The notes beneath the pieces are model-generated. The model was not told the origin of the DNA and searched no databases. It saw nothing but the letters and a program-made list of their open reading frames with translations. A stretch of 64,000 nucleotides of DNA, taken from the IMG/VR virus record IMGVR_UViG_3300045988_115953. The stretch is one strand, 5' to 3'. Below, piece after piece: positions 1,039-62,249 of the stretch. Position 1 is the stretch's first letter. Each line of letters begins with the position of its first letter. Source of the DNA: a virus. The translations under genes were made by a program, and so were the position numbers.

Positions 1039-1193
1039 TGAGCCTCGCTGAGGCTGCTTGCTCGGCTGGCGAATAATAAATAACAATTACTAATTAATAA
1101 ATAATAAAGACGGATGAAGAACATTGTACGAGGCAATGACTTTACGCTGCGGGTATAGAAAGGACATTGTGTAAAAACATAAAATATTAAGAT

Positions 1194-1796
1194 ATGAAAA
1201 AGATACGTATAGGCAATGACATTAACTTCCGATGGACTGTCAAACGTGGCGGAGAGGCAGAAAGCTTTGAGGGGAAAACTGTCAAGGTTCTGCTGCGTAA
1301 TACGTATGGTCATCGTTGTGATATTGACTGGCATACAGAACCAGGCGGTATCATCGCTGGCACGTGCTACGGCTCTACGCAGCATTACCTTGGAGCGTAC
1401 ACCCTCACATTAGTTGAGAACGATGGCGAACGAGGCATGAACACTGTAGATAAAATTGACGTATGGCAGCTTGTGGCACAGCAGGATAGTTCTGTTATGG
1501 AGATTAAAAATGATTGTGTCGGTTCGTCAGTAGAAACCGTCACGGCTCTCATAGAGTCGGAAATAGGCCTTGGCGGAGCAGCGCAAGTGACAATAGATGT
1601 GGAACTAAACGAGGAGTCATACAACGCCATCGCCAATGCGTCCGTAACAAAGGCTATCAAGGAAGTGCGTAAAGATGTTGACTCTTTGAACTTGGAAATG
1701 AAGGAACTGAAACCACGTGTTGAGACGTTGGAAGAAGCTAAATCAGAAGCAATAGACCTAAAGGGCATTGATGATGCCTTTAACGAGAGCATATAG
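1194..1796 (+). CDS. hypothetical virion/tail-fibre-associated protein
   Basis: 200-aa ORF with a coiled-coil-like C-terminus (LNLEMKELKPRVETLEEAKSEAIDLK), co-oriented between fibre genes. No family recognised. Confidence 0.5.
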   Translation: MKKIRIGNDINFRWTVKRGGEAESFEGKTVKVLLRNTYGHRCDIDWHTEPGGIIAGTCYGSTQHYLGAYTLTLVENDGERGMNTVDKIDVWQLVAQQDSSVMEIKNDCVGSSVETVTALIESEIGLGGAAQVTIDVELNEESYNAIANASVTKAIKEVRKDVDSLNLEMKELKPRVETLEEAKSEAIDLKGIDDAFNESI

Positions 1797-1859
1797 CATT
1801 ACAATGAGATTTTTACAATCTATATATCAATGTTTCATTAATTAATTTTTTTAATAATT

Positions 1860-2939
1860 ATGGCAAAGTATTTAGACGAGAATGGTCTGTCAAGACTCGT
1901 TGTGAAGACCAAAGAGTATGCGGATAATTCTTCCGCAGCAGTGAAGACAGCTGTAGATGGCTATACCGTCAACGGCAAAAAGATCAGCACTAACCCAGTG
2001 ATTACAAAGGCTGATGTGGGCTTGGCTAACGTGGACAACGTTAAGCAGATACCTGCATTGGAGAAGGGTGCGGCGAACGGCGTGGCAACTCTCGGCACTG
2101 ACGGCAAACTTACAGCGGCACAGATGCCGGCAATGAAGACGGTTAACGGTGAGAGCGTCGTGGGTTCTGGTGACATCAAAATAGACCTGTCACTCTACAA
2201 GGTTGTCACTGACCTGCCTACGTCAGACATTGATGCCACGAAGATTTACTTGAAGCTTGCTTCAAGCACAGCTGAAAAGAATGTCTACGCGGAGTATATT
2301 TATACTGGTGACACAACGGCAGCATACGACGCATCAAAGTGGGAAAAATTAGGTGAGGCGCAGACATCAATTACCGTGGATGCAGCATTATCTACATCAT
2401 CGACCAATCCGGTTCAGAACAAGGTTGTCAACTCGGCTATCGAGGGTTTGAAGACATCTGTAGGTAACGTACAGTCTGACCTCAATAGCAAAGTACAGGC
2501 CCTTCAGAGTAAGAATGCGACACAGGACACAGAGATTGCAAAGAAGCTAAACGCGTCAGCATACGTAATAGATGCTGCGCTCAATGCCACTTCAACCAAT
2601 CCAGTTCAGAACAAAGCAGTAAATACTGCGCTCGCCAACAAGTTGGACAAGTCATCCTATGTGGTTGATGCCGCTCTTAGCGCATCATCCGCAAATCCAG
2701 TACAGAATAAGGTTGTGAATACTGCGCTTGGACAGAAGGTAAACACCACCACCTTCAACACCGAAATGGCGAAGAAGCTCGACAAAACCACTAAGGCTTC
2801 GGACACCGTTCTCGGTCTTGTACAGACTGGTCATGTCGCTTCAGACGGTGAGCTGCCGCTGAAGGTGGACTCTGACGGAAAGGGCTACGTGGTAATCGAG
2901 TCAATGTCCACAGAGGATATTGACGCATTGTTCAAGTAG
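1860..2939 (+). CDS. tail fibre protein with NPVQNK repeats
   Basis: 359 aa with three copies of (V/I)DAAL-x4-(T/A)NPVQNK(V/A)VN(S/T)A. The N-terminus MAKYLDENGLSRLV resembles the start of the next gene. Confidence 0.75.
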   Translation: MAKYLDENGLSRLVVKTKEYADNSSAAVKTAVDGYTVNGKKISTNPVITKADVGLANVDNVKQIPALEKGAANGVATLGTDGKLTAAQMPAMKTVNGESVVGSGDIKIDLSLYKVVTDLPTSDIDATKIYLKLASSTAEKNVYAEYIYTGDTTAAYDASKWEKLGEAQTSITVDAALSTSSTNPVQNKVVNSAIEGLKTSVGNVQSDLNSKVQALQSKNATQDTEIAKKLNASAYVIDAALNATSTNPVQNKAVNTALANKLDKSSYVVDAALSASSANPVQNKVVNTALGQKVNTTTFNTEMAKKLDKTTKASDTVLGLVQTGHVASDGELPLKVDSDGKGYVVIESMSTEDIDALFK

Positions 2940-3016
2940 TTAGTTTCAGGAGGGTATGTCAGAATACATCTTTTGGGCATACCCTCACTTACTCAAAACC
3001 TATAAAACGTGTAAGT

Positions 3017-60905: not shown

Positions 60906-61433
60906 CTATTTCTTTTTCTTTTGCGCTGTTGCCATTCCGTTTTGGAAGATGAGGCATTCCTCGCAGCGGTTGGGGTATTGGACCGGTAGGTGGAAATGGA
61001 CGGTGTTGGACTCGGTGTCTATCTCGTCCTGCTTGATCTTGTTGTAGTCTGCGATAAGGGAGACTATCTTGAGCCAGTCGGGTGAGCCTTTCGTGGCTTT
61101 CTGCTCTGCTGCTACGAGCTTTCGCAGGATGGACTCCTTGGAGGTTTCCTTGGTAAGCTCCTCGGCTGTTATTTCCTCGGTCTTTGGGGCATTCCTGCCT
61201 TGCAATTCAGCGATGCGTGTCTGTACTGAGTCGAGTGATTCGAGCTTGGCTATTTCCTTTTGGAGTTCTGCTTTTGGCCAGGTAAGTCCTTTGCCGTTGA
61301 AGGCTACAGCCCAAGCATCGTGCTGCGACCATCCTACTGCCCGCAGGTCGGCGTAGATGAGGTAAGCGGGGTCTGACATGCCGTACTTCTTCTTGAGAGA
61401 GTGGACGGCTACTGAGAGTGTGTAATCTGACAT
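60906..61433 (-). CDS. hypothetical head-module protein
   Basis: 175-aa ORF immediately after the MuF-like gene. Confidence 0.5.
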   Translation of the reverse strand: MSDYTLSVAVHSLKKKYGMSDPAYLIYADLRAVGWSQHDAWAVAFNGKGLTWPKAELQKEIAKLESLDSVQTRIAELQGRNAPKTEEITAEELTKETSKESILRKLVAAEQKATKGSPDWLKIVSLIADYNKIKQDEIDTESNTVHFHLPVQYPNRCEECLIFQNGMATAQKKKK

Positions 61434-61446
61434 AATGTATGGTTAT

Positions 61447-62196
61447 TTAATCTTTATTGTAGATAAATTTTATGAGGCACACGCAGTTGGTGTGGAACGG
61501 GGGGAAGGGGTCGCCGAAGTGATGGACGTAGGCGGTTTCGTCATCACAAATTGGACAGGGATATGAACTGCCTCTATGGACTGTGAAGCCTATGGCTCCT
61601 GACTCCTTTCCGTACTGCTGTTCGGCTATTCCCCATGCTACGGCTACCATCTGGCGGGCGTTCCTTGTTATGTTCTGGAAGGCTGAATGGAAGATGCCTT
61701 TGCCGTAGGACGGTGTGGCTATGCTGATGTCCTTTGTCCTTGCCTTCGTGATGACAGAGGCGAGGTAGGGATTCTTGTAGCCGGTGCGGACGGATGAGAG
61801 GAGCTGCGTGTCGGTGTAACCCATCATAATGCCTGCCTTGGACATTCTTACGATGTCCTCGGCGAAGTTACGGAGGTATATGGCAGTTCGCTGTGCCGAT
61901 GTCTTGCCGTAATATTCCGACGTTAGGAAGCTCTCTACCTCTTTCGAGGAGACGTTGAGGTGTGTGGTGGCGGCTACGGCGTAGTCATGGATCTGACGTT
62001 CGATGCCGTCTGCGAGCCTTGAGGTAATGGCACGTGCTTCGCGGAGCAGCGCCTGCTCGTTGGAGAGGACGTTTCCGCGACGGTACTTCCCTGCCGCCTG
62101 CGTGATTTGCTTGGCGGCAGAGAAGAGGAGCTTTGTGATGCGTGACTCGCAGGCGAGCTGCGCCTTGGAGCGAAGTGTGGCGTATTCTGCTGACAT
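61447..62196 (-). CDS. head morphogenesis protein (Mu F / SPP1 gp7-like)
   Basis: 249 aa. The C-terminal CPICDD...PPFHTNCVC fits the Mu F family signature (PxHxNCRC). Follows the portal gene. Confidence 0.7.
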   Translation of the reverse strand: MSAEYATLRSKAQLACESRITKLLFSAAKQITQAAGKYRRGNVLSNEQALLREARAITSRLADGIERQIHDYAVAATTHLNVSSKEVESFLTSEYYGKTSAQRTAIYLRNFAEDIVRMSKAGIMMGYTDTQLLSSVRTGYKNPYLASVITKARTKDISIATPSYGKGIFHSAFQNITRNARQMVAVAWGIAEQQYGKESGAIGFTVHRGSSYPCPICDDETAYVHHFGDPFPPFHTNCVCLIKFIYNKD

Positions 62197-62219
62197 AGTG
62201 TTGGGAATTATTTGGTGAT

Positions 62220-62249
62220 GGGCCTCACTGAGCCTTTCTGAGCCTCTTT
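62220..62249 (+). repeat. 10-bp-phased RRGCCT array
   Basis: GGGCCT-CACT-GAGCCT-TTCT-GAGCCT-CTTT, between the MuF-like and portal genes. Confidence 0.6.

Follow-up and report, generated by a model that had tools for sequence, protein, structure and literature searches.

Phased 10-bp repeat arrays confined to one strand of Prevotella-type phage genomes form a direction-marking DNA element of previously undescribed function

Introduction

Prevotella and its relatives are dominant bacteria of the human and animal gut, and little is understood of their phages, nearly all of which are uncultured. The described systems closest to the repeats reported here are of several kinds. The REP and BIME elements (REPINs) of Proteobacteria are short, lineage-specific and extragenic, lie at gene 3' ends singly or as inverted pairs, and are rapidly gained and lost. 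Chi sites (RecBCD/AddAB) and KOPS or SRS sites (FtsK/SpoIIIE) are single 5–8-mers, over-represented everywhere including within genes, whose orientation follows replication-type strand asymmetry and not the direction of genes; each is specific to a host, whose phages carry it too. The nick sites of phages T5, tf and phiKMV are single sites of one phage lineage, whose consensus recurs on just one strand irrespective of transcription and whose function is obscure. OmpR 10-bp half-sites, MetJ met-boxes, omega heptads and ParR-parC consist of a few contiguous direct repeats of fixed period that are read cooperatively by oligomers, and sit at, and are oriented to, particular promoters or centromeres. 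Finally, ssi sites, plasmid sso sites and G4-type origins, which lie in rolling-circle replicons, are non-coding, host-specific, orientation-dependent signals on one strand, with extensive hairpins, that occur once or twice per replicon.

The DNA considered here (‘the window’) is a 64-kb stretch (64,000 nucleotides) of a gut phage, IMG/VR record IMGVR_UViG_3300045988_115953. An initial annotation, made from its letters, had described dispersed arrays of phased RRGCCT repeats; these share features with each of the above systems.

Results

The window contains eight clear arrays at seven loci and three degenerate ones, composed of RRGCCTNNYT units with an exact 10-bp period, and all of them are found on the plus strand irrespective of the strand of neighboring genes. 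As had been claimed, the clear arrays occupy gene borders: all eight are inter-ORF, two between plus-strand genes and six between minus-strand genes. The array at 4046..4075 has three units (GGGCCTTACT GAGCATACCT AAGCCTCTTT, the middle unit GAGCATACCT being degenerate) and is flanked by plus-strand genes at 3017-4003 and 4134-4652; the array at 4667..4696 (AAGCCTCACT AAGCCTTTCT GGGCCTCTTT) is positioned just 3' of the second of these genes. A further three-unit array (18498..18527; AAGCCTTTCT GGGCCTTATT GAGCCTCTTT) lies between the minus-strand genes at 18526-18924 and 18034-18471. The three units at 32709..32738 (GGGCCTTACT GGGCCTATCT GAGCCTCTTT), also between minus-strand genes, are followed after 8 bp by a two-unit array at 32746..32765 (GGGCCTCGCT GGGCCTCTTT). 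Two units at 36036..36055 (GAGCCTTGCT GAGCCTATCT) lie downstream of the minus-strand reverse-transcriptase gene (36230-37495), in a region with few ORFs. The array at 38996..39035, located between minus-strand genes at 39044-39532 and 37884-38897, has four cores (TGGCCTCACT GGGCCTGCCT AAGCCTTACT AAGCCTTTTG) and terminates in the typical end variant RAGCC.TTGG. The last array (62220..62249; GGGCCTCACT GAGCCTTTCT GAGCCTCTTT) makes up most of the spacer between two minus-strand genes, the portal gene (62250-63962) and the gene at 61447-62196.

The earlier count of at least eleven arrays holds for these eight and, weakly, for two degenerate plus-strand arrays at 12081..12112 (AAGCCTTTAATG GCGCCTTACT GGGGCTTTCT) and 16755..16793 (GGGCCTGTTT .. 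AAGCCTTGTT TAGGCTCTTT), the latter below both the strict and the position-weight-matrix thresholds. It does not hold for two other sites. The sequence at 1040..1060, directly after the stop of the plus-strand gene at 25-1038, is a single plus-strand unit (GAGCCTCGCT) and its 6-bp hairpin partner (GAGGCTGCTTG), forming a small hairpin (GAGCCTC/GAGGCT, 1040-1075) rather than an array, and the stretch at 57629-57655 has no RRGCCT unit, only a GGGCTGCTTGG tail. Smaller details of the initial annotation were reproduced: six of the eight clear arrays end in ..GCCTCTTT, five are followed by a GGCTGCTTG-like sequence (GCTGCTT occurs 20 times on the plus strand and six on the minus), and the AGCCTRAAA motif is indeed found solely in the opposite orientation (AGCCTRAA, 13 times on the minus strand and never on the plus).

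Strict tandem pairs (RRGCCT-N4-RRGCCT) occur 12 times on the plus strand of the window and not at all on the minus strand, whereas 500 dinucleotide-type shuffles gave a mean of 0.108 pairs and a maximum of two for both strands together; a position-weight matrix likewise identifies 11 arrays on the plus strand and none on the minus. Enrichment over shuffled sequence, and the common orientation regardless of gene strand, are both borne out. The same is true of the exact phasing: in ten related and unrelated phage genomes, RRGCCT cores on the array strand are spaced by 10 bp 238 times, by 20 bp 114 times and by 30 bp 41 times, versus zero and two same-strand occurrences for the off-phase spacings of 9 and 11 bp. 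Within arrays, 343 of 356 internal steps measure 10 bp. Two cores are present in 99 arrays, three in 95 and four in 125, with just three arrays being longer.

The element is intergenic and composite, spans ∼30–45 bp and comprises two to four head-to-tail 10-bp units, each consisting of a T, the core RRGCC(T) and three mostly pyrimidine letters. The variant of a unit depends on its place within the array: the first usually ends in ..TACT and later ones in ..TTCT or ..CTTT, and a terminal RAGCC-N-TTGG is frequent. The unit junction carries a T in 93–100% of cases, followed by RR, and each junction reads C-T-R. The four-core cap and the position-dependent variants indicate a defined architecture and not open-ended tandem growth.

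Outside the arrays, the 8-mer YTRRGCCT is found 12 and 21 times in host contigs (on the array-poor strands) versus 15 and 17 expected, and in phages it displays a 2:1 strand skew and nothing more. For six of seven window arrays, the predicted fold is no stronger than that of shuffled sequences (z-scores between −2.1 and +0.6 on both strands). The sole exception is 32709..32738 together with the preceding GGCTCAGGT (z of −5.9 on the plus strand and −4.1 on the minus), where the hairpin is strong on the plus strand only; apart from this hairpin at 32700-32775, the fold test found no stable hairpin at the window arrays, and none is followed by a U-run.

The arrays are restricted to one host lineage. 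They were found in more than 113 IMG/VR stretches and in dozens of unrelated Prevotella-type phages, and 22 of 31 array-bearing records have no shared portal homolog. Among the array-bearing phage genomes we found no shared protein that looks DNA-binding, the most widely shared family being a multi-pass membrane protein. Two strains of Leyella stercorea carry 86 tandem pairs each, and arrays also occur in some Prevotella MAGs; they were not found in 120 other genomes sampled in the family and were found in only two of 60 other genomes sampled in the genus. Relatives in the LoVEphage group, which come from Bacteroides, Phocaeicola and Parabacteroides and have the same gene set (including two integrases, the reverse transcriptase (RT), YopX and the portal), yielded no arrays, a result that argues against the phage-encoded factors first put forward as their readers. 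The GC skew of LoVEphage simply follows gene direction, and relatives of the LoVEphage type encode a ParA.

Phages carry one array per 3–8 kb, and hosts are ∼10-fold sparser. The Leyella arrays sit between housekeeping genes (polA, rpoN, deoC), many of them as convergent inverted pairs that form long palindromes, and arrays also border a small gene similar to that for the 23S-rRNA intervening-sequence protein. Approximately 80% of host arrays are preceded by a gene, the mRNA of which would read AGNNAGGCYY. A single weak PF01797 match (33–36 bits), to a Y1-transposase-like gene, is present per Leyella strain, with no array or unit within 1.5 kb of it.

Comparison with close relatives, in particular the phage genome G001, revealed rapid turnover around a conserved core. 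The array at 4046..4075 is retained in G001 (48668-48697) with the same position, core and phase and different free letters, and another relative (L083) has an empty site at this locus. The array at 4667..4696 is missing from G001 as a clean 49-bp indel, while other relatives have either a longer, 75-bp version or empty sites. At 18498..18527 the middle core has decayed in G001 by a G-to-A change (GGACCT). The array at 32709..32738 is identical in G001 (at 79679) and its neighbor at 32746..32765 is also present (at 79716). The number of units varies, since G001 has exactly one 10-bp unit fewer at 36036..36055. The array at 38996..39035 corresponds to 84208-84247 in G001, with different free letters, and at 62220..62249 seven of 30 letters differ, all at free positions, next to a 44-bp indel. 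At 12081..12112, G001 carries a 357-bp small-gene cassette exactly inside the array.

Overall, gain and loss between close relatives involve indels of 40–100 bp and also single 10-bp units, at hypervariable intergenic spots and mosaic junctions. The inserted segments have no target-site duplication, no terminal inverted repeats and no constant ends, the last of which means that no discrete mobile unit can be defined. The coexistence of filled and empty sites among close relatives implies that no single array is essential. Of the two grounds for doubt named in the initial annotation, chance-level frequency and orientation do not apply, and absence from close relatives does occur for individual arrays (such as that at 4657 in G001). 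Measured against unascertained orthologs, divergence is 1.1% for core letters, 2.7% for flanks and 4.4% for free letters; the core letters are more conserved than their flanks, which we count as selection.

The strand polarity observed in the window extends to the wider set. The arrays are confined to one strand in all 113 of 113 IMG/VR loci (a reversed-pattern control gave zero matches), and 28 of 30 whole viral records have all their arrays on one strand (for example 30:0 and 0:26), while coding in array-bearing phages is divided ∼50:50 between strands. Phage arrays lie between ORFs in 213 of 231 cases, in all gene contexts (++ 61, −− 86, +− 32 and −+ 7), and their orientation never flips; they are tolerated within operons, with one separating the portal gene from the following head gene and another, in a relative, inserted between genes just 6 nt apart. 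Convergent junctions with arrays outnumber divergent ones by 32 to 7 in phages and by 29 to 6 in hosts.

At 92% of viral loci the arrays lie on the G-rich strand (positive GC skew), and the skew is present whichever way the genes point and in all four types of intergenic context. In the phage G151, arrays occur on both strands, and the odd one disagrees with the local skew. In Leyella and Prevotella the array strand is G-rich at 33 of 45 loci (73%); on a 127-kb host contig the sign of the skew matches array orientation at seven of eight loci, and adjacent host arrays are co-oriented in 22 of 27 pairs. Host gene contexts are −− 48, +− 29, ++ 12 and −+ 6; orientation there also tracks gene direction, so that transcription and replication are inseparable in the host. 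In phages, the skew is uniform across the genome whatever the direction of the genes, which suggests that replication is unidirectional or of the rolling-circle type. An array orientation that ignores gene strand and follows GC skew points to a DNA-level signal, tied to replication or direction and not to transcription, as the initial annotation had proposed. The packaging link suggested at the same time is disfavored because the portal gene lies on the array strand in three records and on the other strand in five.

Discussion

We conclude that the arrays are a real direction-marking DNA element with a function not previously described. Our leading explanation, which we advance tentatively, is that they may be phased docking sites for a factor supplied by, or specific to, the Prevotella/Leyella lineage; this factor would recognize a single DNA strand, or a single direction, with respect to replication. 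GC skew is usually read as marking the G-rich strand as the template for lagging-strand synthesis (or, in rolling-circle replication, as the displaced strand), and the array-bearing strand would then be exposed as single-stranded DNA during replication. In its most concrete version, the array could be a signal for starting or loading complementary-strand synthesis on the G-rich strand. Bacterial DnaG primases start at the trinucleotides CTG/CTA; the C-T-R junctions match this type, and a unit is about one primer long.

Several observations count against this explanation. The argument for replication polarity is drawn solely from GC skew. The known ssi, sso and G4 origins need hairpins that the arrays do not have, and to our knowledge primases normally need no dedicated sites. 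A strand-polar function does not require the convergent inverted pairs of Leyella, and the two-strand arrays of G151 and the dispensability of individual arrays also weigh against a docking site. The full proposition, that unrelated Prevotella and Leyella phages share a four-core phased signal present only on the strand that is single-stranded in replication and read by a host-lineage factor (for the start or loading of complementary-strand synthesis, or as a polarity mark for a DNA-tracking machine), is a shade more doubtful still. If true, it would represent a new class of host-specific, replication-polar cis-element, with a logic like that of Chi or KOPS, built and read differently.

It is possible, if on balance doubtful, that the arrays are selfish or nearly neutral repeats, a REP- or MITE-type family that does nothing for the phage, spread by unit slippage, by short-homology recombination, or by a mobilizing enzyme acting on single-stranded DNA at the fork and thereby fixing orientation; IS200/IS605, REP elements with RAYT transposases (REP-associated tyrosine transposases) and TnsE-directed Tn7 provide parallels. 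The turnover by indels and single units, the hypervariable intergenic sites and mosaic junctions, the patchy spread among species, and the REP-like palindromes at gene 3' ends in Leyella (flanking the intervening-sequence-like gene) all agree with such a family, and insertion without target-site duplication or terminal inverted repeats is as in IS200/IS605. However, the inserted segments lack constant ends, the copies are far from identical (having core and phase alone in common), the core is better conserved than the flanks, no arrays lie beside the Y1-transposase-like genes of Leyella, phage density is ∼10 times that of hosts, and the four-core cap suggests a constrained architecture.

We regard as unlikely a one-directional element acting at the level of transcription, in which the arrays or a bound protein would stop or process RNA polymerase or RNA in one genomic direction (leftward, head-on to replication, corresponding in the host to the end of the neighboring gene). 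The arrays do lie only in transcribed spacers, with the convergent excess given above, ∼80% of host arrays follow a gene, and phages mildly favor −− over ++ contexts (86 vs 61); yet ∼40% of phage arrays follow plus-strand genes in the ‘wrong’ orientation and are never flipped, others lie within operons (for example following the portal gene, or where genes are tightly packed), and a hairpin with a U-run is missing. A replication-type constraint would still be needed, since plus-strand genes never carry reversed arrays.

Somewhat less likely again is a role as polar markers for a DNA-tracking enzyme, either protecting rolling-circle tails or injected ends from a host nuclease (as Chi does with RecBCD/AddAB) or steering a translocase (as KOPS does). 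Such markers would be strand-polar and co-oriented with GC skew, as the arrays are in phages and more weakly in hosts, specific to a host lineage and common to its unrelated phages; one array per 3–8 kb is also close to the spacing of Chi in E. coli. Chi specificity is usually common to a whole genus, whereas the arrays were not found in most of the genomes sampled in the genus and family; host contigs show no excess of YTRRGCCT beyond the arrays, the arrays are restricted to intergenic DNA, and a tracking enzyme would have no need of exact 10-bp spacing or a four-core cap.

Strand-specific nicks or DNA-modification sites, like the interruptions of T5, tf and phiKMV, are improbable. The consensus is on one strand only, whatever the genes, and the junction TACT|RRGCC resembles the nick consensus of tf (TACT/RTGMC), but known systems are single sites specific to a phage lineage and not arrays of three to four units, while the motif here is common to unrelated phages and host chromosomes, at times as inverted pairs. 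Sites for a phage protein (partition or centromere sites, iterons, late-activator or packaging-factor sites), which the initial annotation had favored for their phased direct repeats and for which the ParA of LoVEphage-type relatives might be cited, are very improbable given at least eight dispersed loci, occurrence both in host chromosomes and in phages that have no portal or replication genes in common, the lack of a shared phage protein that looks DNA-binding, an array strand uncoupled from portal-gene direction, and array-less relatives with the same gene set.

The arrays offer a ready-made host-prediction marker for metagenomic phage contigs and a handle on the replication of these phages. 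If a host factor reads them, that factor would be a new point of phage-host dependence; if they are selfish, they would constitute a new family of repeats, oriented in a way that records the polarity of replication. In both cases, they account for part of the hypervariable intergenic DNA and mosaic junctions of these genomes.

Comparison with described systems separates the arrays from several familiar elements. Iterons, parS and parC share phased direct repeats with them but would be expected as one or two clusters beside the rep or par gene for the protein that binds them, and not at eight or more dispersed loci. Intrinsic (Rho-independent) terminators do not fit, with a hairpin at 32700-32775 only and an orientation that ignores gene direction, and a promoter reading is rejected. 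The arrays are direct repeats only, with no imperfect inverted repeats (R''-L''/L'-R') as in integron attC sites, which also depend on an adjacent integron integrase and attI; the tyrosine-recombinase gene pair is also present in array-less LoVEphage. For a diversity-generating retroelement, low-stringency BLAST of 34.9–39.9 kb against the window found no TR/VR pair, and letter variation in the arrays is not adenine-specific.

The arrays resemble REP and BIME elements in being short, lineage-specific, extragenic (as in the inter-ORF count above), found at gene 3' ends and convergent junctions, and rapidly gained and lost, and the Leyella arrays form the two arms of long palindromes as REP inverted pairs do. 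Unlike REP elements, the phage copies are single, non-folding arms with a 10-bp periodicity and at most four cores, are far denser in phages than in hosts and, in phages, keep strictly to one strand; they showed no link to a RAYT-type transposase in Leyella, where no array or unit lies within 1.5 kb of the candidate gene for a cognate RAYT (Y1 HUH transposase). With Chi and KOPS/SRS they share host specificity, carriage by the phages of that host and an orientation that goes with strand asymmetry, but their unit is enriched only in phased intergenic arrays and its 8-mer is at expectation elsewhere in host contigs. They recur on one strand regardless of transcription, as do the T5, tf and phiKMV nick sites, but as arrays of two to four units in unrelated phages and chromosomes.

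Like ssi, sso and G4-type signals, the arrays are strand- and orientation-specific, host-specific and non-coding; unlike them, they are numerous and without secondary structure in the fold test. The 10-bp spacing and four-unit cap find their best structural analogy in the head-to-tail operator arrays of OmpR, MetJ, omega and ParR, which differ in being tied to particular promoters or centromeres, whereas the arrays described here run genome-wide along one strand.

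Phase and orientation of the arrays in the viral window

The 64-kb window belongs to a phage genome of approximately 85 kb, and is collinear with the complete IMG/VR viral record G001 (84,957 bp) at 87–98% identity. It encodes an integrase (28909–30093, + strand), a second tyrosine recombinase (30756–31790, − strand), a reverse transcriptase (RT; 36230–37495, − strand), a D5-type primase/helicase (58085–59734, + strand) and a portal protein (62250–63962, − strand) that is 44% identical to those of the Bacteroides phage LoVEphage and its cultured relatives. The two tyrosine recombinase genes are convergent, and the pair is present in eight of the eleven genomes compared (the window counted) and in LoVEphage (17601–18419 and 18471–19610). 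An Rfam search of the window returned a tRNA at 26805–26868 on the − strand (37.1 bits, against a gathering threshold of 29) and nothing else, whereas ARAGORN called no tRNA anywhere in the window. Approximately 30 tandem hexamers (GCCAT(A/C)/GCCAGA) at 17285–17470 lie inside a − strand ORF (16808–17563), and are read on that strand as a long two-residue repeat of the Gly-Tyr/Asp-Gly type.

The initial annotation had described at least eleven arrays of direct repeats with a 10-bp period (RRGCCT-NNCT), all in the same orientation. We retained eight clear arrays at seven loci, starting at 4046, 4667, 18498, 32709, 32746, 36036, 38996 and 62220, all on the + strand. Of the remaining sites, 12081 and 16755 have degenerate arrays, 1040 has one unit and a small hairpin partner, and 57629 is no array. 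The uniform orientation was upheld, with 12 strict tandem pairs on the + strand and none on the − strand, as compared with a mean of 0.108 (maximum 2, both strands summed) in 500 shuffled sequences. Those shuffles, together with a control search using the reversed pattern, rule out composition or chance as the origin of the arrays. Two of the clear arrays lie between + strand genes and six between − strand genes. As originally described, the majority of arrays terminate in GCCTCTTT, and the heptamer GCTGCTT is itself asymmetrically distributed (20 copies on the + strand and 6 on the − strand); an unbiased scan for strand-skewed 7-mers returned nothing but codon-confounded words.

The opposite orientation of the related motif AGCCTRAA(A) was likewise borne out, with 13 copies on the − strand (between 35609 and 47186, and at 58257) and none on the + strand. 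In the region of small genes at 39.6–47.2 kb, every stop codon is followed by this motif (in some cases as TAAGCCTAAAA) and then, in order, by a different GC-rich hairpin and an A/C-rich leader ending in AGAATTATG. The motif, hairpin and leader together form a stereotyped intercistronic boundary.

Architecture and folding of the array unit

Across 230 distinct arrays pooled from IMG/VR, G001 and the window, the unit begins with a T (93–100%), continues with the core R-R-G-C-C-T and closes with three letters, mostly pyrimidines, of which the last is T. TACT is the usual ending of the first unit, and TTCT or CTTT that of subsequent units; the array is often closed by a terminal variant, RAGCC-N-TTGG. 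Successive cores within an array are 10 bp apart in 343 of 356 steps. Arrays comprise two (99 arrays), three (95) or four cores (125) and are longer in only three cases, while adjacent units are identical in just 17 of 376 comparisons. The array is a composite site of capped length, as opposed to an open-ended microsatellite.

Folding of both strands ruled out hairpins and classical terminators, since six of seven window arrays folded no better than shuffled sequence. The exception lies at 32700–32775, where the + strand folds into two successive hairpins, the first with a 15-bp stem containing many G-U pairs (GGCUCAGGUGGGCC-UUAC-UGGGCCUAUCUGAGCC). At −45.5 kcal/mol (z = −5.9) on the + strand, this structure far exceeds its − strand counterpart in stability.

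A genome-wide strand rule accompanied by GC skew

A search of IMG/VR with a three-unit pattern returned at least 113 stretches, and in every stretch among the matches listed the arrays are placed on a single strand. We compared 30 whole viral records (37–115 kb, 31–54% GC), of which 28 have strictly one-stranded arrays (for example 30:0, 0:26, 0:22 and 0:18), the exceptions being 11:1 and 4:5; the reversed pattern gave no matches in any of the 30. In eleven genomes examined in full, coding is divided about evenly between the strands, and the arrays occur between two + strand genes (61), between two − strand genes (86), and in +− (32) and −+ (7) contexts, with 18 more within ORFs. Their orientation never flips across these four contexts. 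The strand rule thus holds across the whole genome, whatever the direction of transcription, in agreement with the initial annotation.

Read in the orientation of the arrays, GC skew is positive at 92% of the 113 listed loci (mean +0.126). In phages of intermediate GC content it is positive on the array strand in genes of both orientations, and in array-masked intergenic DNA it is positive in all four gene contexts in each of the eleven genomes. In LoVEphage, a Bacteroides relative with no arrays, skew instead tracks gene direction. The arrays thus accompany an unusual, uniform strand asymmetry. Such uniform skew is usually read as marking the template of the lagging strand or, where replication is by rolling circle, the displaced strand. 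The window and four of the viral records (G001, G129, G139 and G154) have positive skew on one strand almost everywhere, opposite-strand genes and every intergenic context included, which suggests that these Prevotella-type phages replicate unidirectionally or by rolling circle, or are under a mutational pressure specific to one strand.

Array turnover and core conservation

Between the window and G001, orthologous arrays agree in position, core and phase and differ in the variable (‘free’) letters of the unit. The array at 62220 differs from its orthologue at 7 of 30 letters, at free positions; the two versions at 36036 differ in length by exactly one unit of 10 bp, the array at 18498 shows a core mutation, and that at 4657 is missing from G001 as a 49-bp indel. 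Relatives display many sites with and without an array, in which the filled sites contain GT-rich inserts of 40–100 bp; one such insert separates genes that are just 6 nucleotides apart in the empty form. When these filled and empty sites were compared, the inserts showed neither constant ends nor target duplications nor inverted repeats, which rules out a discrete transposon. Measured against unascertained orthologues, divergence is 1.1% in the core, 2.7% in the flanks and 4.4% in the free letters; this comparison of sequences, although based on few and non-independent pairs, supports purifying selection on the core.

In G001, a cassette of 357 bp (57611–57967) that contains a small − strand ORF is located exactly inside the weak array at 12081–12112 (window position 12092), and a similar block of approximately 45 bp (ATAGGCAGCTCTARCGG..TAGAGGCTGGCGCC) also adjoins the G001 array at 22985.

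Arrays in host chromosomes

Non-trivial bacterial arrays were found in three strains of Leyella stercorea, in several Prevotella MAGs and isolates, and on one Alloprevotella contig, while matches in other phyla are perfect 10-mer microsatellites. Two Leyella strains contain 86 tandem pairs each (none with the reversed pattern). Among the other genomes sampled, the pattern is lacking in all 120 from the family and occurs in only two of the 60 from the genus. Phages carry the arrays at about ten times the density (one per 3–8 kb) of Leyella (approximately one per 65 kb).

The Leyella arrays sit between housekeeping genes (deoC, polA, rpoN, polyprenyl synthase), often as convergent inverted pairs whose arms build long palindromes. 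In L. stercorea DSM 18206 (contig C68, 7400–8600 and 14400–17000), intergenic super-repeats between such genes comprise several 37-bp units (aagaaataggccgaact plus two array units) and then inverted copies, producing palindromes with arms of approximately 150 bp. One Leyella pair flanks a small gene resembling that for a 23S-rRNA intervening-sequence protein. Host arrays lie mostly downstream of opposite-strand genes (−− 48, +− 29, ++ 12, −+ 6). At 33 of 45 loci, and at 7 of 8 on a 127-kb contig, their strand is the locally G-rich one. Gene direction and skew cannot be told apart in the host; neighboring arrays are co-oriented in 22 of 27 pairs by our count. Contig CAAGQJ010000060.1 (111,025 bp), binned as ‘Bacilli bacterium HGM10836’, matches the phage record G134 of IMG/VR in length and in its arrays; it is probably a misbinned phage sequence.

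Search for an associated phage protein

The arrays are not linked to any one phage lineage or phage protein. A homologue of the window’s portal protein is absent from 22 of 31 array-bearing records, and annotated LoVEphage has the same two integrases, RT, YopX and portal as the window, yet no arrays; none were found in BI-TP1, PV4-TP1, Dulem virus 40 or PF672P2 either. When 995 ORFs from 11 genomes were clustered all against all, no universal candidate for a shared phage-encoded DNA-binding protein emerged. The widest ORF family is a multi-pass membrane protein, present in the window as two + strand paralogues (6074–6580 and 8879–9286), and the other widely shared families are integrases, YopX and phrog_10066. 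The membrane protein paralogues have no Pfam or PHROG match and have homologues in all ten array-bearing genomes compared and none in LoVEphage; they may have a host-specific lysis or exclusion function.

Several further associations were rejected. The packaging role proposed in the initial annotation was not sustained, as the arrays and the portal gene are on opposite strands in five records and on the same strand in three. No template/variable repeat (TR/VR) pair of a diversity-generating retroelement was found near the RT, and LoVEphage has an RT without arrays. No arrays lie beside RAYT or Y1 transposase genes, as REP elements would, and no over-representation of a Chi-like single motif was found outside the arrays. 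Arrays also sit inside operons. Nucleotide searches of GenBank phages with a window segment or a consensus array gave no match, and a literature search by sequence words and topic found no description of the element.

Possible function of the arrays

The arrays are lineage-restricted, apparently under selection, exactly phased and composed of up to four cores, with an orientation in phages that is fixed genome-wide along the G-rich strand. We tentatively propose, as the most economical reading, that they are docking arrays for a host-lineage-specific factor, which would read one strand or one direction relative to replication. The main rival, a selfish repeat oriented by replication forks, fits the turnover of the arrays and the host palindromes but leaves core conservation, the capped architecture and the absence of defined ends unexplained; we consider it somewhat less likely. 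Effects on transcription in one direction, markers of the Chi/KOPS kind and nick sites like those of T5 and tf are less likely still.

In its most specific form, the docking proposal would place the arrays on the lagging-strand template, where they might signal the start or loading of complementary-strand synthesis. The unit is about as long as one primer, and its junctions read C-T-R, the type of start site used by bacterial DnaG primases.
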